64,000 nucleotides of DNA from a virus. Location: positions 25,923 through 89,922 of IMG/VR virus record IMGVR_UViG_3300018080_000148; one strand, given 5' to 3'. This document shows, one piece after another, positions 5-48,291 of the stretch. How positions within the stretch are numbered: position 1 is the first letter of the stretch; every line of letters begins with the position of its first letter. The notes beneath the pieces were generated by a model. The model was not told where the DNA came from. It was given only the letters and a program-made list of their open reading frames with translations, and searched no databases. The position numbers were made by a program, and so were the translations under genes.

Positions 5-556
5 TCACGAAGCCTCTTCATCTTCAGCCAGTAATTCATCTTTTGTCCTAACCAATGCACCACTGCACATGGTCATTGTTTTCTCTCGCATCATCGTTAA
101 TGCTTCTTGAATTCCAACATCTGGCAATTCCGGCAAGCCGAACTTTTTCAAAACTTCAATCGGGACTATAATGGTTGAAGATTCATCTTCCTGTTTTTCA
201 AAATCTTCAATCACTTCAAGTTCATTACCTGGAATGTGTCCAATGTGCGGAAGGTCTTTACATGCCTCCCTCTCCCAGGAGCGGAAGTTCTTCTCGTGTT
301 CATAAGAATGAAAAACAACCGGTGTGATGACTACCTCGGCTCCACCATTGATTACCTGCAACCCCTGTGTGATGGTGCAATTACCATACACATCTTTAAA
401 GTCAAAACTCTCGGGGTCTATCCAAGTGGCCGCATCTTCCTCTTTGATGTGTACATCACAACGCCTAACATAAAGTGAACTGGAATGAGGGTATCGAATG
501 AACCTTTGTCCCTCAAGCTTCCTGAGGGCGTCCTTAGGAATCGCTTTGTTTTCCAT
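5..556 (-). CDS. hypothetical protein
   Basis: ORF 5..898; likely start MENKAIPKD at 556 (GGAG upstream), avoiding a long overlap with the next gene. Confidence 0.6.
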   Translation of the reverse strand: MENKAIPKDALRKLEGQRFIRYPHSSSLYVRRCDVHIKEEDAATWIDPESFDFKDVYGNCTITQGLQVINGGAEVVITPVVFHSYEHEKNFRSWEREACKDLPHIGHIPGNELEVIEDFEKQEDESSTIIVPIEVLKKFGLPELPDVGIQEALTMMREKTMTMCSGALVRTKDELLAEDEEAS

Positions 557-22278: not shown

Positions 22279-22313
22279 AACGCACTCCTTCACATGGGGC
22301 TGGGGAAAAACAG

Positions 22314-22399
22314 TGGCCGAGGCGGGACTTGAACCCGCACGGGCGTTACCGCCCACAGGATTTTAAATCCTGAGTGTCTGCCAATTCCACCACTCGGCC
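22314..22399 (-). tRNA. tRNA-Leu(TAA)
   Basis: Cloverleaf; CAGGA-TTTAAAA-TCCTG; long variable arm; no CCA. Confidence 0.95.
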
Positions 22400-26031: not shown

Positions 26032-26197
26032 TGTCGCAAAACCCTTCGCCCAAGACATCGAATTCGTGGGTGTAACCATTTAACCCACGCTCTTGCCAGC
26101 AACCACAATCCCAGCGAACAGTGTCGCCTTCGTCGTAATTGATGATAATCCCCGTGCGGCAGTTGCCGCACGGGGATTCGGTGTTCATGAATTTCAT
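26015..26197 (-). CDS. small Cys-containing hypothetical protein
   Basis: 60-aa ORF filling the operon. Confidence 0.5.
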   Translation of the reverse strand: MKFMNTESPCGNCRTGIIINYDEGDTVRWDCGCWQERGLNGYTHEFDVLGEGFCDSEDQK

Positions 26198-26505
26198 TTT
26201 GGTCGTCTCGGAGGCTTTTTACCTTGCTTGTGGTTCGCCAGCAATTTCAAAAAAGCTTTGGCAAAAGCTGGCGGCAGTTCAACTTTTTGGCTCAGAAGGC
26301 CCATTGTCCCCTTCATGAGGGTGCCGTTACAGCCAAAATTGCAAATGTCGATTCCGCCATCCTCGAAGAGGTAGAAGTCGTACCAATTTCCTTCTACTTC
26401 GATTTCACCGAGAAATGTGGATGGGTTGGTTGGGTCGTAGCCAAACCGCTCGATTTTCAATGCCCGCTGTTCTTCCGGTGTCATTTGATTCCAGGGCTTT
26501 TCCAT
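26194..26505 (-). CDS. hypothetical protein
   Basis: 103 aa; AGGAG SD. Confidence 0.6.
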   Translation of the reverse strand: MEKPWNQMTPEEQRALKIERFGYDPTNPSTFLGEIEVEGNWYDFYLFEDGGIDICNFGCNGTLMKGTMGLLSQKVELPPAFAKAFLKLLANHKQGKKPPRRPK

Positions 26506-26556
26506 TGCGGGGTTCTCCTTGTGGAAATTGTAGCCCAGGAAGAGTGAATTGTAAAC

Positions 26557-26748
26557 GAGAGTCCCCGTAAGCCGGATTCTGTTCTATGCCGCCATTTATC
26601 TGTTGGCCACTACCCGGCGTCACAGGGTTGCTCACCCCCTCAGCCTGTTTGTGTTGCAACCTGGGTGGTGTGTGCGGGCGATGCCCTCCCACCGTGAGCA
26701 ATGTTGTCCGGACTTTCCTCACCGAAGTGCGGCGGCTCGGGACTACTC
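26557..26748 (-). ncRNA. rnpB: RNase P RNA, minimal (catalytic domain only)
   Basis: CR-I GAGGAAAGTCCGGAC, CR-IV AGATAAATG, CR-V ACAGAATCCGGCTTA; P1-P8 and P15-P17 pairings; TATACT -10 at 26757-26762. Confidence 0.92.
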
Positions 26749-26782
26749 TTAGACACAGTATAGCGGAAAAGGTTCGCCTCCC

Positions 26783-27922
26783 CTACTTCCCTTCCTCTTC
26801 CCCCTTACGACCGGAGGTTTGCTGTAAGTCGTGTGGCCGCAATTCTTTGCGGCATGCATGAACAGCAGCGGCAATCACCTGATGCATGTCGTAGTATTTG
26901 TAGGTTCCCAGCCGTCCACCAAAGATTACATCGGGCTCTTGCTTGGCAGCCTCCTGGTACTTTTTGCACAAGGCGTTGTTCTGTTCGTCGTTGATCGGGT
27001 AATACCGGGGTTCTCCCGGCTTCCATTCTTGCGGGTACTCGAATGTGAAGACGGTCTTCTCTTGTGTGCCGAACTCGAAGTGCTTGTGTTCAATGATCCG
27101 GGTGTGTTGCTTTTCTTCTTCGGTGTAGTTGACAACAGCGTTGCCCTGCATGTCTCCGGTAGACGTTACGTGTGTAAACCTTAGAGAACGATACTCCAAA
27201 GGACCGTGCATGTACATGAAGAACTCATCGATGGGGCCAGTGAACACCAACTTCTTGGCCAACCTCTGCCAATCTTCCCCTGGGGTGAATTTGCAATTCA
27301 GTTCAAGGTCAATGCCCTTTAGCATCTTTTCAACGATTTGGGTATAACCGCCGATAGGGATGCCCTGGTATCTATCCTTGTAGTAGTTGTCGTCATAAGT
27401 CAGTCGGATCGGCAATCGTTTTATGATGAAAGCTGGCAACTCCTTGGGATCTCGGCCCCACTGTTTCTTCGTGTACCCTCGAATGAATATTTCGTAGATC
27501 TCTTCGCCAACCTGAGACAGAGCCCATTCCTCTAAGTTGCTGGGGTTTTCACACGGCACACGGACAGACGCCAGTTTCTTTTCCGCTTCTTCTGGAGATC
27601 CCACGCCCCATAATTGATGGAGGGTCAATAGGTTTATGGGGAAGGAGTACATTCTTCTCTTGTATCTTACCTTTGGGCGGTTGACGAAGTGGTTGAACTC
27701 GGCGAACCGGTTTACGTAGTTCCAGATTTCGTAGCTGTTGGTATGAAAGATGTGAGGTCCGTGGCAATGTACGTTGATGCCGCCAACGTTTCTCGTATAG
27801 ATGTGCCCAGCCACATGCTTGCCTCTTTCCCAAACAAGGACTTTTTTGCCATTCATTGCCATTTCATGGGCGAAGGTGGCACCGTATAGTCCTGCGCCCA
27901 CTACAAGATAGTCGTATTTCAT
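26783..27922 (-). CDS. glf: UDP-galactopyranose mutase
   Basis: VVGAGLYG, HGPHIFHT, YTKKQWG, YQGIP, GRLGTYKYYDM. Confidence 0.95.
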   Translation of the reverse strand: MKYDYLVVGAGLYGATFAHEMAMNGKKVLVWERGKHVAGHIYTRNVGGINVHCHGPHIFHTNSYEIWNYVNRFAEFNHFVNRPKVRYKRRMYSFPINLLTLHQLWGVGSPEEAEKKLASVRVPCENPSNLEEWALSQVGEEIYEIFIRGYTKKQWGRDPKELPAFIIKRLPIRLTYDDNYYKDRYQGIPIGGYTQIVEKMLKGIDLELNCKFTPGEDWQRLAKKLVFTGPIDEFFMYMHGPLEYRSLRFTHVTSTGDMQGNAVVNYTEEEKQHTRIIEHKHFEFGTQEKTVFTFEYPQEWKPGEPRYYPINDEQNNALCKKYQEAAKQEPDVIFGGRLGTYKYYDMHQVIAAAVHACRKELRPHDLQQTSGRKGEEEGK

Positions 27923-27955
27923 ATTTAATAATTTCACCTTCTGCTATATACAATC

Positions 27956-30540: not shown

Positions 30541-30557
30541 AATTTTCCTTTCTATAG

Positions 30558-30637
30558 CGGAAGCGACAGGACTCGAACCTGCAACCCTTTCGGGCAACCG
30601 GCTTCCAACCGGCTTCCTCACCATTCGGATCGCTTCC
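30558..30637 (-). tRNA. tRNA-Ser(GGA)
   Basis: GCCGG-TTGGAAG-CCGGT; G73; variable arm. Confidence 0.9.
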
Positions 30638-40370: not shown

Positions 40371-40372
40371 AG

Positions 40373-40457
40373 TACCCAGGGCGAGACTCGAACTCGCACC
40401 CCCGGAATGGGGACTAGGCCCTCAACCTAGCGTGTCTACCAATTCCACCACCTGGGC
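40373..40457 (-). tRNA. tRNA-Leu(GAG)
   Basis: CTAGG-TTGAGGG-CCTAG. Confidence 0.95.
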
Positions 40458-40893
40458 GTATGAATTTCTTTTTTATTTTTGTCCTAATGGGCTTTTCTGG
40501 CGTTTGGCAATCCAACCTACTTGGGCTGCCGTAGTGGCCCAATATCTCTTCTCCTGATTTAATATCACGGTTAAAAATATATAGCACCCTGCCGTCATCT
40601 GTCTGGACTAAAGTCGCATTTTGTTGTCGCACGGTCGGTGCCTGATTGACGATGCCCCCAATTCCCATGGGAACCAAGCTGTGCTCTCTGCCATCGGCAA
40701 AAAACTTGTAGTTGTGAGCGTATTGTGTGCAGTTGTCTTCAAGAGACCCGTATTTCACCTTGGCTCCGATAACCTCGATGAAATCCCCTTTCTTCAGATC
40801 TACCAGGGCAAAGACGCCTCGGCCTGCATTCGGGATCGTGGAGGCTGCTATCCGGTATTTACGAAGGTTTTCTTCGGGCTCTTGGAAAATCAT
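40414..40893 (-). CDS. SET-domain protein
   Basis: STIPNAGRGVFA, RDIKSGEEILGHYG. Confidence 0.85.
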   Translation of the reverse strand: MIFQEPEENLRKYRIAASTIPNAGRGVFALVDLKKGDFIEVIGAKVKYGSLEDNCTQYAHNYKFFADGREHSLVPMGIGGIVNQAPTVRQQNATLVQTDDGRVLYIFNRDIKSGEEILGHYGSPSRLDCQTPEKPIRTKIKKKFIRPGGGIGRHARLRA

Positions 40894-40905
40894 TCCTTAA
40901 TAGAG

Positions 40906-41029
40906 TGGCCGGGACTGGAATCGAACCAGTGACCTTTGGGGGAACAGCTTGAGAGGTAACTATGAGCCTTTCGGCGTCGTGCAATCAAGCGTCTTGTCCC
41001 AATGCTCTACCAACGTGAGCTACCCGACC
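40906..41029 (-). tRNA. tRNA-like gene with ~50-nt anticodon-loop insertion (isotype uncertain)
   Basis: Intact acceptor, D and T arms; 57 nt between the anticodon stem strands. Confidence 0.75.
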
Positions 41030-41229
41030 TTATTTTTGCCCTCCCAACTGACTCCGTGCGTCACGCTGAGGTAACGACACAATTCGTCGGCTGCGTCTTG
41101 GGGGAGAGAGGCAATTCTGTCACCAAGCTCCCGAATGTAATCTTCCTCAAAAGCAGTTCCAGTGGTTGTTGTAGGCGGTTTGATTCCATCGCCTTGTGTT
41201 TGCGTACAACCGTATCCGTTCATAGACAC
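41020..41229 (-). CDS. small hypothetical protein
   Basis: 69 aa; AGGAG SD. Confidence 0.55.
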   Translation of the reverse strand: MSMNGYGCTQTQGDGIKPPTTTTGTAFEEDYIRELGDRIASLPQDAADELCRYLSVTHGVSWEGKNKVG

Positions 41230-41257
41230 CGCTCCTATTGATGGGGTTCGTTTTTAG

Positions 41258-41337
41258 TGAGCAGGGCAGGAATTGAACCTGCAACTACTGGTTGCGACAT
41301 CGGCTTTGTAACTGGTGGACTTTCGCCCACACCGCTC
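41258..41337 (-). ncRNA. tRNA-like RNA (non-canonical D and anticodon arms)
   Basis: T arm GCAGG-TTCAATT-CCTGC and acceptor stem present; D arm replaced by a GAAA hairpin. Confidence 0.6.
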
Positions 41338-41375
41338 ACTCTCCAGCGTGCTTACCAGAGCACCTCCCGCCCAAT

Positions 41376-41564
41376 TTAGCCGCCAAATTGGACTCGTGCG
41401 TAATCTGTCAAAAGGTGATGGATTCTTCGATGTGCCACTTTTTTGGCGTTAAAGTCTGCCAACTTGCCACCGAGGTAGGCATCAAGCAGTTCTTGGTCAG
41501 TCAATAACTCGGCCATGTCTGCGTTGATACTTCTGATTTTCGCTTTCGATACGTTGATAGACAT
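41376..41564 (-). CDS. small hypothetical protein
   Basis: Start MSINVSK. Confidence 0.55.
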
Positions 41565-41595
41565 CCTTTTTTCCTTATGCGGGCGGGGGATGTAG

Positions 41596-41679
41596 TGCCC
41601 CTGGCAGGACTCGAACCTGCACGGCCTTGCGGCCACAGCATCCTGAATGCTGCGTGTCTACCATTTCCACCACAGGGGC
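41596..41679 (-). tRNA. tRNA-Leu(CAG)
   Basis: CAGCA-TTCAGGA-TGCTG. Confidence 0.95.
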
Positions 41680-41680
41680 A

Positions 41681-41920
41681 TTAGCTTGGGGGTGGGAACC
41701 CCGGATTGTCGTTCTTCTTTTTCTGTTTATCATCCTTGAATGTTGGTGTCCACGCCAACATGATCCAACATGTGATCCCAAACACTGCCAGTGTTACCGA
41801 AATCGACCACGGCAACATATTCACCTTCTCGGTCATCTTGAAGGCAACGGCGTCGGCTACGCCGAAGCCTCCTACGCAGATGGCCACTAAGATGGCAACA
41901 CTCTTTACAATTTTTATCAT
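41681..41920 (-). CDS. small membrane protein
   Basis: Two TM segments; GGAGAGG SD. Confidence 0.6.
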   Translation of the reverse strand: MIKIVKSVAILVAICVGGFGVADAVAFKMTEKVNMLPWSISVTLAVFGITCWIMLAWTPTFKDDKQKKKNDNPGFPPPS

Positions 41921-41934
41921 GGACCTCTCCTAAG

Positions 41935-42016
41935 TAGCCCCGGAGGGAGTCGAACCCTCACGCCTTGCGGCACTGGATCTTAAATCCAGCGTGTCTACCG
42001 ATTTCACCACGGGGCC
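41935..42016 (-). tRNA. tRNA-Leu(TAA)
   Basis: CTGGA-TTTAAGA-TCCAG. Confidence 0.95.
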
Positions 42017-42044
42017 TTGCAACCGTTTTCCCCACTAGCCACAC

Positions 42045-42218
42045 TTATGGTGGAACGGCAAACATGCTGTAACATTCGATGCTCCGCTCCCTAAGGTCTC
42101 TTTGTTCTTCTTTGGAAAGCTTCTCGCAATCCTTGCAGGGTCCGTCACCGTTGAAGTGCTCTTCGGCGTACACCTCTAAACAGATTGGGCACTGAAATTG
42201 TATGGGGCCGAGGCTCAT
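42045..42218 (-). CDS. small Zn-finger protein
   Basis: CPIC...CKDC. Confidence 0.5.
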   Translation of the reverse strand: MSLGPIQFQCPICLEVYAEEHFNGDGPCKDCEKLSKEEQRDLRERSIECYSMFAVPP

Positions 42219-42222
42219 TGTT

Positions 42223-42816
42223 TTACCTGGGGTTTTGTGCGCTTTCAATCAAGTGTGTTGTTGGATCAAGTAGGCCGAATGGTTGGCTCTCACCTTTCTC
42301 CCACACGCCGTTGCTCAGGAAGCCGTGGCGATGCATGGCAAGGTGGAGCATGGAGGTTGGTCTGCCCTTGTCCTTCTTGAGCACTCGTTTGACGTGCCCG
42401 ATCAGGTCGCCTTGTCGCACCTCTTTTTCCTGAATGTAGAACTTTTGTTTTCCCTCGACGGTGGATTCCCCGATAACTCGAAAGCCGTGGTGCTTGATTT
42501 CCCCATAAACTACGATCCCGCTATTGCCCGCAACTGATACGGCCCATGTGTTCTCCCACCAATCACACCCCGCCACTTTGCCCGTGAATGGCCGAATGTG
42601 GCAAAGCACTCCATCTTCTACGGCGAAGACTTCAGTTCCTTCAGGACAATAAAGATCCACGCCCTTGTGAACGTCATGCCGCCGCTCGATGCCAAAAGCG
42701 CCGACATGCGGCTTGATGGGTATCTCCACTTCCGAAGTAATGTCGATATACTGAAAAGACATCGAGTTGGAAGTGGGCCCTAACTTCTTCATCTTCAATG
42801 GAAACAACCAAGTCAC
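42223..42816 (-). CDS. M23 family peptidase
   Basis: HKGVDL, VFAVEDG, VRQGDLIG, MLHL, DPT. Confidence 0.8.
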   Translation of the reverse strand: MTWLFPLKMKKLGPTSNSMSFQYIDITSEVEIPIKPHVGAFGIERRHDVHKGVDLYCPEGTEVFAVEDGVLCHIRPFTGKVAGCDWWENTWAVSVAGNSGIVVYGEIKHHGFRVIGESTVEGKQKFYIQEKEVRQGDLIGHVKRVLKKDKGRPTSMLHLAMHRHGFLSNGVWEKGESQPFGLLDPTTHLIESAQNPR

Positions 42817-43078
42817 TGACCTCTCCTCTCACGCTGCGATAGAGGAAATCCTTCTCCACCAAAATATACTCATATTTACGCAAAAAGCGCCGTCCAGCCA
42901 GCCAAGCGGCAACGGTGCGGTGGTGTCCATTTTCGATTGCCATCGTACCGTCCGCCAGTCGAGCTATTTGGATTGGTTCTACGTATCCACCTTGCCTTAT
43001 CTCTTCCACTAGCTTCGGCAACTGGTGTGCTCGATTCAACCGGTGTTGTGTTGTTTTAAGTTTTGCAATGTCTATCAC
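42674..43078 (-). CDS. ParB/Srx N-terminal-like protein
   Basis: IENGHHRTVAAW. Confidence 0.65.
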   Translation of the reverse strand: MIDIAKLKTTQHRLNRAHQLPKLVEEIRQGGYVEPIQIARLADGTMAIENGHHRTVAAWLAGRRFLRKYEYILVEKDFLYRSVRGEVSDLVVSIEDEEVRAHFQLDVFSVYRHYFGSGDTHQAACRRFWHRAAA

Positions 43079-43443
43079 AGGCCACCCGCTCCATCTTGTT
43101 TGAGTCGCCTTTTTAGATTAGGGAATGGAACCTGTTCTACCTTGTAGTTGTGGCGAAGGGCATCTTCCATCCTTTGTGCGCCTCGCCTATTTGTCGAGTG
43201 GATGATGACCTTCTTTATTTGCGGCCTTTCTTGAGCAAGCCATTTTGCGGCTACTGCTCCATTTTTGCCCTCGTAACCCGGTGCCTCTTCCAAGTCGTGA
43301 TCGAGTAGGGCTAAATCCCATTCTCCTAGCACGACTCGACGCTTCAGGTCTCTAAATCTCCTACACACAATGGCGTAGGGGAAGTGTTTCAGGAGAAATT
43401 CCAACCGCACCTTCCAACGGTCTTCCAAAATTATTACGTTCAT
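43075..43443 (-). CDS. cyclic-phosphate-processing receiver-domain protein
   Basis: ILED, LLDHDL, IIHSTN..GAQRM signature. Confidence 0.75.
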   Translation of the reverse strand: MNVIILEDRWKVRLEFLLKHFPYAIVCRRFRDLKRRVVLGEWDLALLDHDLEEAPGYEGKNGAVAAKWLAQERPQIKKVIIHSTNRRGAQRMEDALRHNYKVEQVPFPNLKRRLKQDGAGGL

Positions 43444-43445
43444 AG

Positions 43446-43530
<85 letters not shown>

Positions 43531-43556
43531 TTGTTTTTCCCCACTAGCCACACTTA

Positions 43557-44048
43557 TTACGCCGTTTCCCCACGCATGAACCTGCGAGCCATCTGCCAAC
43601 CCCTTTCTGTTGCCTCAAACCTCGCCACTGGCGAACTTTCTCTGCCGAAGTGTGGGTCGATTTGCTTGGCGTCATCGGCTGGGGCGTTGCCCTCGTAAAC
43701 CATGATCTTGTGGCTGTTCGGACAGTTTGGGTAATGAACCCACAGAGCCGTCCAGTAACACTCTTCTGCCCGCCGCAGGATCGTGAACACCTCTTCCTTC
43801 TCGTCGATCATCTTGATCGCTTGAAGATGTTCTGCCTGGATCACGAAATCCACGTCAGGGTCAAAGTCTGTCAAGTCGTTCATGCCGACCGCAAACAACA
43901 CCTTGTCGTCGTCCACATCAGCCAACACGATCACATCGCTTTTTGGTCCGCCCAAGAATTGGAATCTGCCAATTCTCTGAGGGTGGTGTGGGTGACCCGA
44001 TACAACCTTGTACTGTGTGTCATAGACCAGATTCATTCTAGACTCCAT
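43557..44048 (-). CDS. hypothetical protein
   Basis: 163 aa; IDPHF...PVARF motif. Confidence 0.65.
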   Translation of the reverse strand: MESRMNLVYDTQYKVVSGHPHHPQRIGRFQFLGGPKSDVIVLADVDDDKVLFAVGMNDLTDFDPDVDFVIQAEHLQAIKMIDEKEEVFTILRRAEECYWTALWVHYPNCPNSHKIMVYEGNAPADDAKQIDPHFGRESSPVARFEATERGWQMARRFMRGETA

Positions 44049-44311
44049 TCGTTGGGATGCGCCACTTCCAGTTCTTGCTCAGGAAGCCTTTCCTGATACA
44101 CTTCTTGGATTGACTGCCGCACCTTGAGCTTCTCTTCCATCGTCAACTCTCGATGAACCGTAAACTTCATCGTGACGATCTCACTTCTGAGACTCATCTT
44201 TTCGGGAAAGCCGAAACCGTGCATGGTCTCGTTGACCGAATCAACTATTTCCCCAACCGAGGAAAAGACCTTGCCCAGATTGCACGTGATGGGAATGAGA
44301 TACGTTGGCAT
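44033..44311 (-). CDS. hypothetical protein
   Basis: Start MPTYLIP with AAGGAG SD. Confidence 0.6.
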   Translation of the reverse strand: MPTYLIPITCNLGKVFSSVGEIVDSVNETMHGFGFPEKMSLRSEIVTMKFTVHRELTMEEKLKVRQSIQEVYQERLPEQELEVAHPNEWSLE

Positions 44312-44326
44312 GGTTTGCTCCTTCAG

Positions 44327-44408
44327 TAGCCGGGGCGGGACTCGAACCCGCACGCCTTGCGGCACAGGTTCCTAAAACCTGCGTGTCTGCCAATTTCACC
44401 ACCCGGCC
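44327..44408 (-). tRNA. tRNA-Leu(TAG)
   Basis: CAGGT-TTTAGGA-ACCTG. Confidence 0.95.
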
Positions 44409-44493
44409 TCACCGCCTTAGGGCTGCTTCGTTTCCGACCTGACCCGGTTCGGCGGCTAGACTTCGTTGACGACCTTGCGGAAGCCAACGACAG

Positions 44494-44658
44494 TCATGTT
44501 TCGTTCGTAAACACTTTGTGGATCTGAAAGCGAAGTATCGATAGCTCACGTGGGTGCTCACACTCCTCTTCCACCCATGCCTGAGCCTCTTCGTAGGTGT
44601 TTCTTTCTGCCCTGATTGTCGTCGAACCCCATTCTGTCACAATAAACTTCACTTTCAC
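44494..44658 (-). CDS. small hypothetical protein (54 aa)
   Basis: Manual translation MKVKFIVTEWG...; AAGGAG SD. Confidence 0.5.
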   Translation of the reverse strand: MKVKFIVTEWGSTTIRAERNTYEEAQAWVEEECEHPRELSILRFQIHKVFTNET

Positions 44659-44668
44659 GATTGTCTCC

Positions 44669-45004
44669 TTACATCGTCATTTCGTCAACATGCCCCGCAC
44701 TCACAGGGTCGTCGCCCTGGATAGCTGCGATTTTCTCGGCTGCCTCGTTGAGAACTTTGCTGATCTCCAACGCTTTTTCAAAATTCTGCTCCGTCCGCTT
44801 CGCCATCTCGGACAAATACACGGTGGAGAGATTCTGCATGAGTCCTATCATGCGGAAGTTGCACGCCATCATGGCCTTCAGTAGGTAGTCTTCTTGCGGA
44901 AACATGTTTTTATTGTACCCCATGACTAGATAGTTGTGAACCAAGTCTTTTGGTACTATCATCGAGAGGCCCGCCCCCATGGAAACGGGGTGGGCCTTGT
45001 TCAT
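44669..45004 (-). CDS. hypothetical protein
   Basis: Start MNKAHP just after the tRNA. Confidence 0.55.
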   Translation of the reverse strand: MNKAHPVSMGAGLSMIVPKDLVHNYLVMGYNKNMFPQEDYLLKAMMACNFRMIGLMQNLSTVYLSEMAKRTEQNFEKALEISKVLNEAAEKIAAIQGDDPVSAGHVDEMTM

Positions 45005-45007
45005 GAG

Positions 45008-45102
45008 TGGGCCGGGCTGGAGTCGAACCAGCGACACCTGGATTTTCATTCATGGGGTTGCCTGACCCCTGTCCAGTGCTCTACCAACTGAGCTACCGAC
45101 CC
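45008..45102 (-). tRNA. tRNA-Phe(GAA) with 22-nt anticodon-loop intron
   Basis: CTGGAC[AGGGGTCAGGCAACCCCATGAA]TGAAAATCCAG; removal gives a 73-nt canonical tRNA. Confidence 0.85.
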
Positions 45103-45107
45103 ATATT

Positions 45108-45320
45108 TTAGCAGCAATCAATATAAACCAATGGGTCCATATCGGGGTCCATTTGGTGACCGTTCTTGAGATTGTGGGCGACTTTATATCCCACTGTGCG
45201 AGCAAACCGTTCAAGATCTTCGTGAGTCACCCCATCGAATACTCTTGCATCTTGGTCCCACTTTTTTTTCAGATCATCGTGAACAGACTCGCCTGCCAAT
45301 GCTGTGCTATATGCGCTCAT
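45108..45320 (-). CDS. small hypothetical protein
   Basis: Start MSAYST with AAGGA SD. Confidence 0.55.
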   Translation of the reverse strand: MSAYSTALAGESVHDDLKKKWDQDARVFDGVTHEDLERFARTVGYKVAHNLKNGHQMDPDMDPLVYIDCC

Positions 45321-45341
45321 TGCGTTTTCCTTTCTGAAGAG

Positions 45342-45426
45342 CGGAAGCGGAGGGAGTCGAACCCCCAAGGCGGTTAAGCTCGTCCCGGTTCGAGCGGGGT
45401 GCAGTCGCCAATCTGCTTGCGCTTCC
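45342..45426 (-). tRNA. tRNA-Ser(CGA)
   Basis: CCCCG-CTCGAAC-CGGGA; G73. Confidence 0.9.
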
Positions 45427-45427
45427 G

Positions 45428-45727
45428 TTACTGATCGTATCCAACATTTGATGCTTCATCGATTTCTACATCGATGCCTCGGTCAGTGACCCAAAGACTA
45501 TGTATCAGCCGCCCGATGACGGTGCTCTCGAAGTCGTCCAGTTTGGGGCGGATCTCTCCGATTTGGTCCATTAACGGGTCGGCCAAGTCATCTCGGTCAT
45601 TGGCCAAGTGTTCGTTTGCCTCAACGATCAGTTTGATGCAGCGTTCATAATTGCTCGGTCTTCCACGTTTCGTGGTTGACTTTGCCGCTGTCTTTTTCTT
45701 CGTCGTTTTCTTCTTCGCCATTATCAT
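45428..45727 (-). CDS. hypothetical protein with basic N-terminus
   Basis: AKKKTTKKK...KRGRP AT-hook-like. Confidence 0.6.
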   Translation of the reverse strand: MIMAKKKTTKKKTAAKSTTKRGRPSNYERCIKLIVEANEHLANDRDDLADPLMDQIGEIRPKLDDFESTVIGRLIHSLWVTDRGIDVEIDEASNVGYDQ

Positions 45728-45830
45728 AATCCTCTAGCAAAAAGTGTAGTATAGTACGCACTTGCGCACATTTTTCGCCAAAAGGATTACGACTTTGACG
45801 TTTTAAGTCAAGGCCAACTTCTATACCAAA

Positions 45831-45843
45831 TTGTCAAAGATCA
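45831..45843 (-). promoter_or_regulatory. boxA-like antitermination site
   Basis: TGATCTTTGACAA on the transcribed strand within the tRNA array. Confidence 0.65.
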
Positions 45844-45867
45844 AATCAAGCTGGCATTGCCAGCAAG

Positions 45868-46004
45868 TGGGAGAGGTAGGAGTCGAACCTACAAGCCCTT
45901 TCGGGCGTCACGTTTACAGCGTGCTTACCTTGCCAATGGTTGTATGCTTCTAATGTAGGGGACGGTTGCCCGTCCAAGTCTTGAAAGCGTTTAGTTACTC
46001 TCCC
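45868..46004 (-). tRNA. tRNA-Tyr(GTA) with ~54-nt D-arm insertion
   Basis: Acceptor GGGAGAG/CTCTCCC; CACG-CTGTAAA-CGTG; variable arm; 137 nt long. Confidence 0.8.
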
Positions 46005-46008
46005 GTTG

Positions 46009-46125
46009 TGGACCGAGCAGGAGTTGAACCTGCATCCTCGCCTTCCAGGGCGCTATGTTACTCGCTGAATCACCGGCGTATTATGTACACTAGCCCACCG
46101 GCTATCAGTTACACACCATCGGTCC
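46009..46125 (-). tRNA. tRNA-like gene with ~45-nt D-loop insertion (anticodon TGG or GGA, atypical loop)
   Basis: Acceptor GGACCGA/TCGGTCC; T arm intact; CGCC-CTGGAA-GGCG. Confidence 0.6.
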
Positions 46126-46127
46126 AG

Positions 46128-46206
46128 AGTCGCCGGGAGGATTCGAACCTCTTACCACGAGTTTTGCAGACTCGCTCCGAGCCATTAGGATTTAGGTTCC
46201 GACGAC
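46128..46206 (-). tRNA. tRNA-Cys(GCA)
   Basis: CGAGT-CTGCAAA-ACTCG; U73; ~7 extra nt after the acceptor 5' strand. Confidence 0.8.
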
Positions 46207-46776
46207 ATTCAGCTTGTTGCCTTTGGGTAGGTAGTAAAATTTCCAATTCTTGAATGTTTCTGCCATACATTTTTTCCTGAGTTGTTCTACTGGGAACTTC
46301 TTAGGGAAGGTGTGTATGGTGCGATGACAATTGGGGCACACTACTACCAAATTATCATGTGAATCTGTTCCTCCTTTTTTCTTGGGCACAATATGGTGGA
46401 TGTCGCATGCTGCTTCATTCCACCCACACAGTACGCACTTAATCTTTGCTCTCTTGAGGATCTTTTGCTGTGTTCTTTTTGAAAACTCAAGTATGCTTTT
46501 GGCGTCTTCTTTGCAATATGCTACTTTCCTTTTACATTGTTCGCAGTGTTTTTTCCTGCTTTGACGGATCTTTTTACTCTCGAATGCTTTCCCGCATTTT
46601 TCACAAGTGTATTTGTGTAGCTCGTGGGGGTGCGATGCTGCCCATGCGGCAACCGAACTAGCAATTTTTTCTCTCGTTTGTTTGTTGTGACTTCTGCTCT
46701 TGGCGCACGATTCACTGCAAAATCGCCCGGAGCCAAATGTCCCATCATGTTTTTTGTTGCATTTTTCACACTTCAT
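46192..46776 (-). CDS. HNH homing endonuclease with Zn-finger/NUMOD-like N-terminus
   Basis: GSGRFCS, CVLCGW, DIHHI, NLVVVCPNCH. Confidence 0.9.
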   Translation of the reverse strand: MKCEKCNKKHDGTFGSGRFCSESCAKSRSHNKQTREKIASSVAAWAASHPHELHKYTCEKCGKAFESKKIRQSRKKHCEQCKRKVAYCKEDAKSILEFSKRTQQKILKRAKIKCVLCGWNEAACDIHHIVPKKKGGTDSHDNLVVVCPNCHRTIHTFPKKFPVEQLRKKCMAETFKNWKFYYLPKGNKLNVVGT

Positions 46777-46852
46777 TGTTCAGCCTCCGATTTATCTATC
46801 GGAAACTGAACTTGTTTTGAGTGTAAAAAAATTCACATTTTATCAGGTTCAG

Positions 46853-46938
46853 TGGGCCGAGAGGGACTTGAACCCCCAAGCACCTTACGGTGACGTGGTT
46901 TACAGCCACGGACGCTACCAATTACGCTCTATCGACCC
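46853..46938 (-). tRNA. tRNA-Tyr(GTA)
   Basis: CGTGG-CTGTAAA-CCACG. Confidence 0.9.
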
Positions 46939-47210
46939 TACTCTTTCTTGGGCGGCTCCTTCGGCAAGGAGTCACCTGTGTTGTCTCTATGTCTCCTTAT
47001 CATTTGTTCTGGTGTATCGGGGATTTCAGTCGGCTCTCCTGCTGATAAAACCACCCAACCATTTGTCCAGTGTCCGTAATCGTCTTTCAGCTTGACGACG
47101 CCCCCAACCTTTGCAAACTTCTCTGGGATGTATGACACCATCGTGGAGATGCCGGTTCGGGTTTTTCTTTCCATATAACACTGGCAATACTTTACGGTTT
47201 TCTTGCTCAT
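46938..47210 (-). CDS. hypothetical protein
   Basis: 90-aa ORF between tRNAs. Confidence 0.6.
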   Translation of the reverse strand: MSKKTVKYCQCYMERKTRTGISTMVSYIPEKFAKVGGVVKLKDDYGHWTNGWVVLSAGEPTEIPDTPEQMIRRHRDNTGDSLPKEPPKKE

Positions 47211-47235
47211 TTTCGCATCGTAATGCTCCTTTCAG

Positions 47236-47318
47236 CGGAGGCGACAGGACTCGAACCTGCAAGGCTTTCGCTCGACGGTTTTCAAGACCGCTGCCGTCGC
47301 CAATCGGCTTGCGCCTCC
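47236..47318 (-). tRNA. tRNA-Ser(TGA)
   Basis: GCGGT-CTTGAAA-ACCGT. Confidence 0.93.
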
Positions 47319-47375
47319 TCGCTAGGGCCGAGGGGCGGTGGATCGTCCATGCCGCCCGAGGGCCCGTATAGTTTG

Positions 47376-47723
47376 TTATGGATGCACCTCAAAGTGAATC
47401 CCAGAGCCATGGCTTCCATGGTGGCTCCCATTTCGGCAGTACGGACAAGTGCGATAATCACGCCCATGACGACAGTTGTTGAAATCATGTCGGCAGTGAG
47501 GGCAGCTAACCGCACTGTAACCGTGCCTGCACCTATATGCGTTTCGGCAGTGAGGACATGTTCGATAATCATATCCGTGACGACATCTGGCTACGTGTGG
47601 CTGATGATGTCCACGTTCAATAATTACCGGCCTTTGCTGCCTTGGCTGGCAGTCGTGATGACAGGAACAACCTGTCACGAAAGCCAGCAACAGTAGAACA
47701 AATAACGAAGTGACAACTTTCAT
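47376..47723 (-). CDS. lipoprotein with three CRHG-x5-CPxC repeats
   Basis: Lipobox-like VTGC; His/Cys repeats. Confidence 0.7.
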   Translation of the reverse strand: MKVVTSLFVLLLLAFVTGCSCHHDCQPRQQRPVIIERGHHQPHVARCRHGYDYRTCPHCRNAYRCRHGYSAVSCPHCRHDFNNCRHGRDYRTCPYCRNGSHHGSHGSGIHFEVHP

Positions 47724-47773
47724 CTTCCCTCCTATTGAAAGAGTCCGTCACTTGTATCTACTGTTATTACTAG

Positions 47774-47845
47774 TGGAAAGGGTAGGAATCGAACCTACGA
47801 CGCCCTGGTGTTCAGTCAGGCGCTCTACCACTGAGCTACCTTTCC
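47774..47845 (-). tRNA. tRNA-Phe(GAA)
   Basis: CCTGA-CTGAACA-CCAGG (atypical C37, 31-39 mismatch). Confidence 0.85.
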
Positions 47846-48009
47846 ATTGCTCTTTGGTTTAGTCTCCTGTTTTCCTTTCTCTTCTCTTTCTTGGCCACAC
47901 GACTTTCGCTGACCTTTTTCTGGTGAGCAAACCACCCCGCCCAGTCCATACGGCCAGTCGGCATGCCGCCACCGGAACCGGGCATCTTCTTGATACGTTT
48001 GTATCGCAT
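47836..48009 (-). CDS. small basic protein
   Basis: Start MRYKRIK with GGAG SD. Confidence 0.5.
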   Translation of the reverse strand: MRYKRIKKMPGSGGGMPTGRMDWAGWFAHQKKVSESRVAKKEKRKENRRLNQRAMER

Positions 48010-48022
48010 GGCTTCTCTCCAG

Positions 48023-48111
48023 CGGAGGGCATGGGAATCGAACCCACCGCTCCCCGTAGGGAGCACCTGCTTTCCAAGCAGGCCCGGCTAACCAATATCC
48101 GGCTACCCTCC
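48023..48111 (-). tRNA. tRNA-Ser(GGA)
   Basis: CCTGC-TTGGAAA-GCAGG. Confidence 0.93.
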
Positions 48112-48203
48112 AAGTTTAGTTGCAACTTTCAATTGAAGTTGCGACTTTCAATTCCATGCAGCCAAATGTAACAAAAGTGTTATATTTGGCTACACTTAAC
48201 AAG

Positions 48204-48291
48204 CGGAAGCGACAGGAATCGAACCTGCACCGGTAGTTGGCCGGAACGCTTTAGCAGAGCGCCGCTACGAACCAATATTAGCCTCGCTTCC
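48204..48291 (-). tRNA. tRNA-Ser(GCT)
   Basis: GCGCT-CTGCTAA-AGCGT. Confidence 0.93.

Follow-up and report, generated by a model that had tools for sequence, protein, structure and literature searches.

A 192-nucleotide phage gene for a bacterial-type RNase P RNA essentially reduced to the catalytic domain

A window of 64,000 nucleotides from a viral record, the whole stretch of DNA analysed here, carries on its minus strand a gene whose RNA product, judged by its alignment, is homologous to RNase P RNA and is of the bacterial type (class A), essentially reduced to the catalytic domain. RNase P RNA counts as a ribozyme universal to cells, with a two-domain design that serves as a textbook example. 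With a probability of roughly 0.65, this phage gene encodes an active RNase P RNA that consists of the catalytic domain only and would work together with the RnpA protein of the host. The record itself is an 89.9-kb fragment of a T4-like huge phage with an estimated completeness of 18%, and it contains the miniature gene in a single copy. The phage origin that an earlier note on this DNA had proposed is borne out by the record, an IMG/VR virus record that encodes a Gp23-like capsid protein, a DnaB-like helicase, PolA and SbcCD.

The minus-strand RNA aligns from end to end with RF00010, the Rfam family of bacterial class A RNase P RNA. Using an E-value threshold, cmscan returns an untruncated match at 26553-26748(-) that covers model positions 1-367 with 72.4 bits (E 3.9e-22). 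This score falls short of the RF00010 gathering score of 100 bits, and an Rfam scan at gathering thresholds reports no RNase P RNA at 26557-26748. The deficit arises because some 25 nt stand in for approximately 140 positions that the model assigns to the specificity domain (S-domain), and because P18 is lost. Bacterial class A was the best Rfam family, with one lower-scoring match from the same clan, in a context that is that of a T4-like bacteriophage. The Infernal search against Rfam that the earlier note had suggested as a check thus confirms its phage RNase P RNA of about 190 nt at 26557-26748, visible with the E-value threshold and not with the gathering threshold, and these two coordinates are the exact ends of P1. 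Our model of the phage family, R1, matches the window over 26556-26748 with 184.4 bits (E 6e-50), by construction, as the present copy is part of the R1 seed alignment. The RNA strand has a folding energy of -78.2 kcal/mol versus -65.4 +/- 4.1 kcal/mol for shuffled sequences (z -3.1), with 1 of 200 shuffles doing as well. The features are as follows, with RNA position n corresponding to window coordinate 26749-n.

26557..26748, minus strand: miniature RNase P RNA gene, 192 nt from P1 end to end (RF00010 and model R1)
26757..26762, minus strand: TATACT, a -10-like hexamer 9 nt before G1 (read from the sequence)
26738..26748 with 26557-26567, minus strand: P1, RNA 1-11 / 182-192 (pairing across relatives)
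26731..26736 with 26588-26593, minus strand: P2, RNA 13-18 / 156-161 (covariation)
26720..26729, minus strand: minimal P3, CAC-UUCG-GUG, 3 bp and a UUCG tetraloop, RNA 20-29
26706..26720, minus strand: CR-I, GAGGAAAGUCCGGAC, including the 5' strand of P4 and the bulged U37, RNA 29-43
RNA 34-41 / 174-180, minus strand: P4 with bulged U37 (pairing across 45 sequences)
RNA 43-46 / 89-92, minus strand: P5, CAAC/GUUG
26694..26701 with 26628-26635, minus strand: P6, UUGCUCAC/GUGAGCAA, an 8-bp pseudoknot with the P17 loop, RNA 48-55 / 114-121
26664..26693, minus strand: S-domain remnant, P7 GGUGG/CCACC, an asymmetric loop (GA opposite GCACACA) and a 4-bp hairpin, RNA 56-85
26654..26657, minus strand: J5/15 GCAA, in which A94 is the E. 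coli A248 equivalent, RNA 92-95
26608..26653, minus strand: P15-P16-P17 arm, RNA 96-141 (pairing and covariation)
26612-26614, minus strand: L15 GGU, equivalent of E. coli G292 G293 U294, RNA 135-137
26593..26601, minus strand: CR-IV / J18-2, AGAUAAAUG, RNA 148-156, equivalent of E. coli 328-336
26567..26583, minus strand: CR-V, AACAGAAUCCGGCUUAC, including the 3' strand of P4, RNA 166-182, equivalent of E. coli 346-362

Every catalytic-domain element is kept, including P1-P5, the P4 and P6 pseudoknots, P15-P17, and CR-I, CR-IV and CR-V, the last three matching the RF00010 consensus letter for letter where cmscan aligns them. All the helices and conserved regions named in the earlier note were found in the RF00010 alignment and tested on relatives. 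Positions were mapped to E. coli rnpB through RF00010, which places CR-I at E. coli 61-75 and makes the bulged U37 the equivalent of U69. E. coli M1 RNA (rnpB, RF00010) shares this catalytic domain, including the U69 and A248 equivalents and the GGU of L15, but it is a cellular RNA of 377 nt, whereas the RNA described here is phage-encoded and 192 nt long. The peripheral elements differ in both directions: P3 takes up 10 nt compared with about 40 nt in E. coli and the P18 site only 6 nt where E. coli has 28 nt, whereas P6, whose pseudoknot is a class A trait, has 8 bp instead of 4.

The gene belongs to a family. Exact-pattern scans recovered members of 153-294 nt in 67 distinct viral contigs besides the present record; the patterns yielded 13 real viral contigs, 41, and then 9 and 16 from two more, while the very first pattern, GGAAAGTCCGG-N100-130-ACAGAANCCGGCTTA, gave no matches, and at one P4 position covered by it the present copy is alone among 45 sequences in having a C-G pair. 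With R1, all 45 distinct sequences score 83-192 bits, the present copy being third, and 19 viral sequences outside the seed score 83-144 bits and 17 later loci 55-126 bits. Full-length bacterial RNAs (62 sequences) reach merely 18-70 bits, and E. coli rnpB is undetected by R1 at E <= 0.01. One member, L089, was missed by cmscan at E <= 0.001, yet obtains 164.8 bits with R1. We rejected L085 (R1 19.2 bits) as a chance pattern match in AT-rich coding DNA, and the T4 stable RNAs rnaC and rnaD as relatives, their best R1 score being 2.9 bits with filters off. In the viral copies, 82-196 nt separate CR-I from CR-IV, versus 230-330 nt in 44 of the 45 measurable bacterial-genome loci; the exceptional forty-fifth is a mini form on a 6.8-kb MAG contig. 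The 3' signature, GAUAAAUG-N5-AUAGAACANAAYCC, is also present in 63 bacterial loci, mostly of Bacteroidota and Leptospira/Spirochaetia. Standard annotation misses the genes of this family because their scores lie below the Rfam threshold, and a public phage record of 735,411 bp holds an unannotated copy. In blastn searches against GenBank phages, neither the 192-nt RNA nor the 159-nt L090 RNA gave a match, and the L091 RNA, alone among the queries, matched LR756501/LR756503.

What do the relatives reveal about selection on the RNA? In the family alignment of 45 sequences, 89.2% of 2357 cells are paired versus 62.3% in shuffles, with 0 of 500 shuffles reaching 89.2%, double changes are found at 47 of 56 pairs, and the covariation score is 0.615, whereas shuffles give 0.177 and slid partners 0.07-0.15. 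In P1, 9 of 10 pairs have changed on both sides and 83.9% of cells are paired; in P2 all six pairs covary (98.5% paired); and P15, P16 and P17, each of which covaries, are 89-96% paired. P4 was left out of the model that built the alignment, and its 7 pairs are nevertheless paired in 100% of cells, with 3 of 7 covarying and U37 invariant. In 31 of the 45 members, the P6 segment forms an uninterrupted run of 6 or more pairs with the P16-P17 region, versus 24% of shuffled segments, and P6 is lengthened to 7-8 bp in many copies; its complementarity is kept although the paired sequences are unrelated between lineages. Conservation of CR-I, CR-IV and CR-V over the 45 relatives is in parts forced by the search patterns, and the A248-equivalent position, an A in 42 of 45 sequences, was forced to GCRA by two of them. 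The GGU of L15 is in no search pattern, and its three bases are retained in 43, 43 and 40 of the 45 sequences. Judged by these substitutions, the structure of the phage family is maintained through compensatory changes.

These data bear on whether the gene might be a functionless, decaying relic of a captured host rnpB, or resemble RNase P RNA by chance. The score under the Rfam cut-off would fit this, as would the patchy occurrence of the gene among relatives (3 of 49 records related by helicase, which sum to roughly 7.8 genome equivalents by CheckV). However, the match has an E-value of 3.9e-22 across the whole RF00010 model, dozens of divergent copies keep all helices through compensatory change, every copy has lost the same functional modules (P8-P14, frequently along with P18), and there is one RNA copy per locus. 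We consider a relic or a chance resemblance highly improbable, and indeed already contradicted by the R1 scores and the covariation.

The earlier note had described the RNA as lacking the specificity domain, which goes somewhat too far: a stub of 30 nt, formed by P7, an asymmetric loop and a hairpin, remains of the 156 nt present in E. coli (87-242). The RF00010 alignment of the 192-nt RNA shows P8-P14 with CR-II and CR-III, and P18, to be absent. Stub positions G57, G60, A62, A80, C81 and C84 show no variation in a family alignment and, given several such invariant or near-invariant positions, the stub is probably functional. A T-loop in the stub was considered by analogy with type T RNAs (PMC13462272), but the family consensus, G-U-U-N-N-(N)-A, is a poor fit to a canonical T-loop. 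The present copy, with GCACACA, departs from this consensus in having C75 and A76; a U occupies these positions in 27 and 31, respectively, of about 42 sequences.

How could such a reduced RNA act? In the mechanism that we favor, the transcript would fold into an active site centered on P4 and bind the acceptor stem of pre-tRNAs, with the GGU of L15 pairing with a 3'-CCA while the A248 equivalent lies adjacent to the site of cleavage. Host RnpA would be recruited, since no phage rnpA was found. The lengthened 8-bp P6 may make up for the lost interdomain braces, the loss of P18 is proposed to follow from that of its partner P8, and through the conserved stub the RNA may still touch the tRNA elbow weakly. 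The RNA would cut the 5' leaders off the many pre-tRNAs of the phage, and probably off host ones too, and may add to or replace the host RNase P RNA during infection. That the phage uses a ribozyme of its own with host RnpA in this manner, to take over or boost the 5' maturation of its tRNAs with relaxed recognition of the tRNA elbow, seems to us about an even bet. The earlier note had likewise proposed that the ribozyme may process atypical pre-tRNAs of the phage without T/D-loop recognition.

The window contains 13 tRNA genes, and an SRP-RNA-like gene adjoins a tRNA at 44409-44474, within a tRNA array. A same-strand tRNA lies within 20 nt of the RNA in 24 of 44 loci of the family and within 160 nt in 27 of 44. 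Unlike those 24 relatives, the present copy stands alone, its nearest same-strand tRNA being 3.8 kb off. None of the 13 tRNA genes encodes CCA, and a search of the 90-kb fragment gave no CCA-adding enzyme, so that GGU could come into play only once a different enzyme has added CCA. The hexamer TATACT, which the earlier note had called a dedicated -10 box, is indeed found in the 34-nt gap between the stop codon of glf and the RNA, and is a putative promoter element, no sigma-70-type site being called there for want of a -35 match. The promoter scan called neither promoter nor terminator for the 192-nt RNA.

Precursors of 4.5S RNA are classical substrates of RNase P. An active ribozyme could have another main task, either acting in cis on the tRNA behind it or processing non-tRNA substrates, for example the SRP-like RNA or mRNAs of the phage. 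A gap of 0-9 nt between the end of the RNA and a tRNA, seen in many relatives, would keep enzyme and substrate tethered, and the SRP-RNA-like gene next to a tRNA would offer a substrate of the second kind. We nonetheless hold a different main task to be unlikely: no tRNA lies within 160 nt of the RNA in the present copy, in the copy of the 735-kb GenBank phage or in 17 of the 44 loci, which means that action in trans must be possible, and no computational sign sets special substrates apart.

CR-IV, CR-V, P2-P3 and P15 are protein-binding regions in bacterial holoenzymes, and all are kept in the phage RNA. A search of the genome for rnpA, also put forward in the earlier note, was run and gave none in the 90-kb fragment (Pfam Ribonuclease_P, 0 of 1); the same Pfam family was found in none of the 44 carrier records, 9 of which are at least 90% complete. 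We rejected the 103-aa ORF just downstream (26194-26505) as a protein cofactor: it matches nothing in Pfam or PHROG, and tblastn against 201 loci gave no homologue with E below 0.8. The retained protein-binding regions and the lack of a detected rnpA in this record and the 44 carrier records would equally suit a sponge or decoy, a poor enzyme that binds host RnpA by its intact catalytic domain and so starves the host RNase P or re-programmes host tRNA maturation; the earlier note had raised such a role as titration of host RnpA. The missing S-domain would also be in line with this, since its removal is described to lower activity (PMC5839562), and such a role is discussed for the camelpox RNA (PMC3001073). 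A decoy, however, has no need for the substrate-binding GGU or for the A248 equivalent, the conservation of which favors catalysis over a pure decoy, nor does it need to sit in tRNA arrays, as the copies within 20 nt of a tRNA do. Moreover, phages with dozens of tRNA genes presumably need more 5' processing capacity, not less. We thus rate the decoy as quite unlikely and prefer an active ribozyme that works with host RnpA.

Comparable reductions have been described in other settings. Type T archaeal RNase P RNA is reported to miss most of the S-domain and P18 while keeping P6 and P15-P17, its S-domain remnant being essentially one stem (PMC13462272, PMC7191817, PMC5839562), for which a model places a T-loop in contact with the tRNA elbow (PMC13462272). 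Type T and phage RNAs are alike in having the S-domain cut down to a stem and in lacking P18. However, the type T RNA is archaeal and has Pop5, Rpp30, Rpp29 and L7Ae as partners, whereas the phage RNA appears bacterial in type by its best Rfam family and occurs in bacteriophages, with no match to Pfam Ribonuclease_P in their records, and the stub of the present copy has no obvious T-loop; the two reductions look independent and convergent. An engineered C-domain of the E. coli RNA, named Eco CP RPR, is described to cleave both in the presence and in the absence of C5 protein (Mao et al. 2018, PMC5839562), and according to the same source its activity relies on a "P6-mimic", P18 is dispensable once the S-domain is absent, and taking the S-domain away slows E. 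coli RNase P RNA approximately 120-fold (PMC5839562). Eco CP RPR has the same architecture but was made in the laboratory, whereas the phage RNAs are natural, under selection, equipped with a longer P6 and a conserved stub, and predicted ribozymes.

Among viruses, camelpox, a poxvirus, is described to encode an RNase P-like RNA that is similar to bacterial and archaeal RNase P RNA, was reported to lack pre-tRNA processing in vitro, and has been discussed as a decoy (PMC3001073). It is a single case from a eukaryotic virus, likened here to the phage RNA by description only. The RNase P RNAs of CPR bacteria, as reported by Lui et al. (2021, PMC8172020), also fall below Rfam thresholds and do without P12, P13, P14 and P18 and, once, P15. 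These RNAs are cellular and retain the S-domain, in contrast to the 30-nt stub of the phage RNA.

We found no paper on a phage-encoded RNase P RNA in a literature search that covered the main texts of openly available papers. The terms "RNase P", "ribonuclease P" and "ribozyme" have 0 occurrences in the main text of Al-Shayeb et al. 2020 (PMC7162821), and "phage", "virus" and "viral" have 0 occurrences in the P finder paper (PMC7191817). If our reading is true, this would be the first catalytically active RNase P encoded by a virus, and a natural enzyme that, with 192 nt here and 153 nt in relatives, lies below any cellular bacterial RNase P RNA in size. The family would then be a natural experiment on how far the RNase P ribozyme can be pared down, providing natural minimal ribozymes of graded sizes (153-294 nt) for structural and mechanistic work, which could test the laboratory conclusions on P6, P18 and the S-domain described in PMC5839562. 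S-domain reduction would be shown to occur in phages besides the Thermoproteaceae archaea, and tRNA 5' processing would be added to the translation functions of large phages.

The miniature RNase P RNA gene spans 192 nt on the minus strand, from 26748 down to 26557, and its two ends pair as P1. Under an E-value threshold, cmscan aligned 26553-26748 (minus strand) to RF00010, the bacterial class A RNase P RNA model, at 72.4 bits (E 3.9e-22) over model positions 1-367, not truncated, which is the kind of Rfam search the earlier note had suggested; the match was recovered when the whole record was scanned. The score lies below the RF00010 cut-off of 100 bits, and at gathering thresholds the window yielded only tRNAs, one tRNA-Sec-model match and one small-SRP match, with no RNase P RNA. 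The shortfall arises because S-domain (specificity domain) blocks of 15, 15 and 110 model positions are matched by 6, 4 and 15 nt, 23 positions of P18 by 1 nt, and P3 is shortened to a stub. The minus strand folds more stably than shuffled sequence (z -3.1), a value equalled by 1 of 200 shuffles.

E. coli numbering was transferred by aligning E. coli rnpB to the same model; RNA position n is window position 26749-n. All helices and elements first read from sequence alone are present in this alignment and mapping. The S-domain, described in the earlier note as lacking, is indeed reduced from the 156 nt of E. coli, but a conserved 30-nt remnant is still there.

Elements of the miniature RNA (RNA numbering)
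1-11 / 182-192, P1
13-18 / 156-161, P2
20-29, P3, CAC-UUCG-GUG (about 40 nt in E. coli)
29-43, conserved region CR-I, GAGGAAAGUCCGGAC, E. coli 61-75
34-41 / 174-180, P4, bulged U37 equivalent to U69
43-46 / 89-92, P5
48-55 / 114-121, P6, 8 bp with the P17 loop
56-85, S-domain remnant, 30 nt (156 nt in E. coli, 87-242)
92-95, J5/15, GCAA, A94 equivalent to A248
96-141, P15-P17, GGU 135-137 equivalent to G292 G293 U294
142-147, former P18 site, 6 nt (28 nt in E. coli)
148-156, CR-IV, E. coli 328-336
166-182, CR-V, E. coli 346-362

Positions G57, G60, A62, A80, C81 and C84 of the stub are invariant in one alignment of family members (A1), and the stub of this copy deviates from the family consensus. 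Family forms of 153-166 nt have no stub whatsoever; P18-like inserts are present in some larger forms and absent from small ones.

The structure of this RNA is under selection. In an alignment of 45 sequences, standard pairs fill 89.2% of 2357 pair cells as against 62.3% in column shuffles, a level reached by none of 500, and in 47 of 56 pairs both partners have changed. Covariation scores 0.615, compared with 0.177 after shuffling and 0.07-0.15 with partners slid by 1-3 columns, and a 26-sequence MAFFT alignment gives the same picture. The model behind the alignment contained P1-P3, P5, P7 and P15-P17, which biases these helices in its favour, but neither P4 nor P6. All P4 cells are paired (100%) and three of its pairs covary (one of them as A-U 28, G-C 13, U-A 3, C-G 1); this copy alone among the 45 carries the bacterial C-G at the variable pair. 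For P6, 31 of 45 sequences retain a run of 6 or more contiguous pairs, versus 24% when the 5' segment is shuffled, and they do so with sequences unrelated across lineages (UUGCUCAC, GGCAAGUG, CAAGAAG, CCGAGUG, GCAAGGAA, GUUGAG). The invariance of CR-I, GCRA and CR-V is partly ascertainment, since search patterns forced parts of them; the L15 GGU, absent from every pattern, is retained in 43, 43 and 40 of the 45. That the RNA is a relic is very improbable.

How widespread is this RNA? Among 49 records related by their helicase (35-45% identity), two gave full-length RF00010 matches (273 and 261 nt) and three matched our own model, so the gene is patchy within this clade. The 3' signature common to these copies, GATAAATG-N5-ATAGAACANAAYCC, matched 14 viral contigs, 13 of them real, and cmscan gave end-to-end RF00010 matches of 161-294 nt in 10 of 12 new loci searched. 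The same signature occurs in bacteria at 63 loci, chiefly from Bacteroidota and Leptospira/Spirochaetia, where its distance from CR-I is 230-330 nt in 44 of the 45 that were measurable, versus 82-196 nt in viral copies. The 45th is a 228-nt mini form (L116, 391-618) that adjoins three tRNA genes; the 6.8-kb contig bearing it was binned with a Planctomycetia MAG and is probably phage DNA assigned to the wrong bin, or part of a prophage. Three patterns spanning CR-I, GCRA and CR-V with differing gaps matched 41, 9 and 16 viral contigs. This record aside, family members occur in 67 distinct viral contigs altogether; because the census relied on exact patterns, it is too low for the family as a whole, and some conservation figures are skewed. 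The longest carrier record measures 476 kb. Nine carriers have a completeness rating of 90% or more, the complete ones being 96-470 kb long, and direct terminal repeats are present in six of the carrier records overall.

A covariance model built from 26 window-like sequences (R1) gave each of the 45 distinct sequences 83-192 bits (184.4 for this copy) and 17 later loci 55-126 bits, the smallest full-length matches being 153 nt; 62 bacterial loci reached only 18-70 bits. LR756501.1, an unannotated 735,411-bp 'uncultured phage' in GenBank, holds a 227-nt member (L205 2993-3219, about 181312-181538, minus strand; R1 score 104.4 bits). Its surroundings contain no tRNA gene up to 3 kb away, and a P4 pair that is invariant elsewhere in the set has changed in it, with compensation, from G-C to C-G.

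The source record is an IMG/VR virus entry of 89,922 bp, from which the window takes bases 25923-89922; CheckV puts its completeness at 18%, so that the whole genome would measure roughly 500 kb. Among its products are a Gp23-like major capsid protein, a DnaB-like helicase, a polymerase of family A and an SbcCD-like pair. The RNA occurs in it once, in a 277-nt gap flanked by two genes on the RNA's own strand.

Features of the window around the RNA gene
26783-27937, minus strand, UDP-galactopyranose mutase gene, upstream (Pfam GLF, E 1.5e-77)
26555-26527, minus strand, promoter-like TTTACA-17-TACAAT, sigma-70-like (10/12 matches), overlapping the RNA 3' tail and facing the 103-aa ORF
26194-26505, minus strand, 103-aa ORF, downstream, no family matched
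40372-48291, 22313-22399 and 30557-30637, minus strand, tRNA genes (13 in all, ARAGORN)

TATACT, the dedicated -10 box proposed earlier, does stand 9 nt upstream of G1, but the promoter scan called no sigma-70-type site for the RNA, and no terminator was called for it either. The 103-aa ORF has a basic C-terminus; as a protein partner of the RNA it was ruled out by synteny.

The genome search for rnpA proposed in the earlier note returned none in the RNA's own record, and Pfam Ribonuclease_P (RnpA) was likewise not found in 44 carrier records; the control was positive in 10 of 14 named genomes. Because the record covers just part of a genome, little is proved by its lacking rnpA or a CCA-adding enzyme; the nine near-complete carrier genomes weigh more heavily. 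Given this absence, the RNA presumably relies on the host's RnpA or on an unrecognised protein, or acts by itself. That it instead serves as an RnpA decoy we consider improbable.

Of 44 other loci, 24 have a tRNA gene on the same strand no more than 20 nt from the RNA, often 0-9 nt away on either side, and 27 have one within 160 nt; seven have distant tRNAs only, and ten fetched loci have none. Here the nearest same-strand tRNA is 3808 nt off, which makes this copy a stand-alone gene outside any tRNA array. That the RNA acts chiefly in cis or on other substrates is unlikely. CCA is encoded by 0 of 13 window tRNA genes versus 263 of 433 in other loci, a pattern that varies between phages, and the CCA-adding enzyme domain PF01743 was not found in the 90-kb fragment.

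The 13 tRNAs are Leu (6), Ser (5), Tyr and Phe only, nearly all long-variable-arm types. Directly upstream of tRNA-Leu 44326-44408, in the array, lies a small-SRP-RNA match (RF00169, 44409-44474, minus strand; 41.9 bits, cut-off 40, model 1-97) that contains the motif of domain IV, GGUCAGGUCGGAAACGAAGCAGCC; the phage may encode here a minimal 4.5S-like RNA, which tRNA 5' processing would set free. Rfam tRNA matches without an ARAGORN call at 45008-45102 and 40906-41029 (minus strand), one with a 28-nt anticodon-loop insertion and the other 124 nt long, may be intron-bearing tRNA genes, and 47237-47318 (minus strand; tRNA-Sec model 48.6 bits against 47, ARAGORN tRNA-Ser(tga)) is probably an ordinary long-arm tRNA. 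Two carrier phages have CUA-anticodon tRNAs (ARAGORN 'tRNA-Pyl'; L089 3246-3318, L175 2041-2114), amber suppressors that hint at recoding of a stop codon, and in three carriers tmRNA genes share the tRNA-rich region with the mini RNA (L084 6-363, L164 929-1353, L189 1020-1389).

The RNA is probably (about 65%) an active endonuclease that trims pre-tRNA 5' ends in trans with the help of host RnpA. All the parts that in bacterial RNase P build the active site and grip the acceptor stem, 3' end and protein have been kept; the S-domain proper and the elements bracing it have been lost. According to one study (PMC5839562), the E. coli catalytic domain (C-domain) alone cleaves with or without the C5 protein, requires a P6-like pairing (P6 in E. 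coli being 4 bp, G82-C85 with G276-C279) and can dispense with P18 once the S-domain is removed, S-domain loss costing about 120-fold in rate in type A and about 25,000-fold in type B. The pattern of kept and lost parts in the phage RNAs agrees with that described there, and with P6 lengthened and P18 gone in small forms they appear to be a natural version of this laboratory C-domain. The S-domain remnant of archaeal type T RNAs is modelled with a T-loop in contact with the tRNA elbow (PMC13462272); the 30-nt stub, in which no T-loop is obvious, could play a similar role.

Full-text literature searches, covering main texts outside subscription journals, found no paper on a phage-encoded RNase P RNA, and 'RNase P' is absent from the main text of the huge-phage study of Al-Shayeb et al. 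2020 (PMC7162821). Lui et al. 2021 report only tRNAs and a tmRNA from their own megaphages (PMC8172020), the paper on a tool for annotating rnpB restricts minimal forms to archaea (PMC7191817), and the camelpox RNase P-like RNA is reported as inactive (PMC3001073); this last is the sole viral precedent in the literature searched. Particular to this window are the lack of any CCA-encoding tRNA gene, the bacterial C-G pair in P4 and the stand-alone setting of its miniature RNase P RNA.
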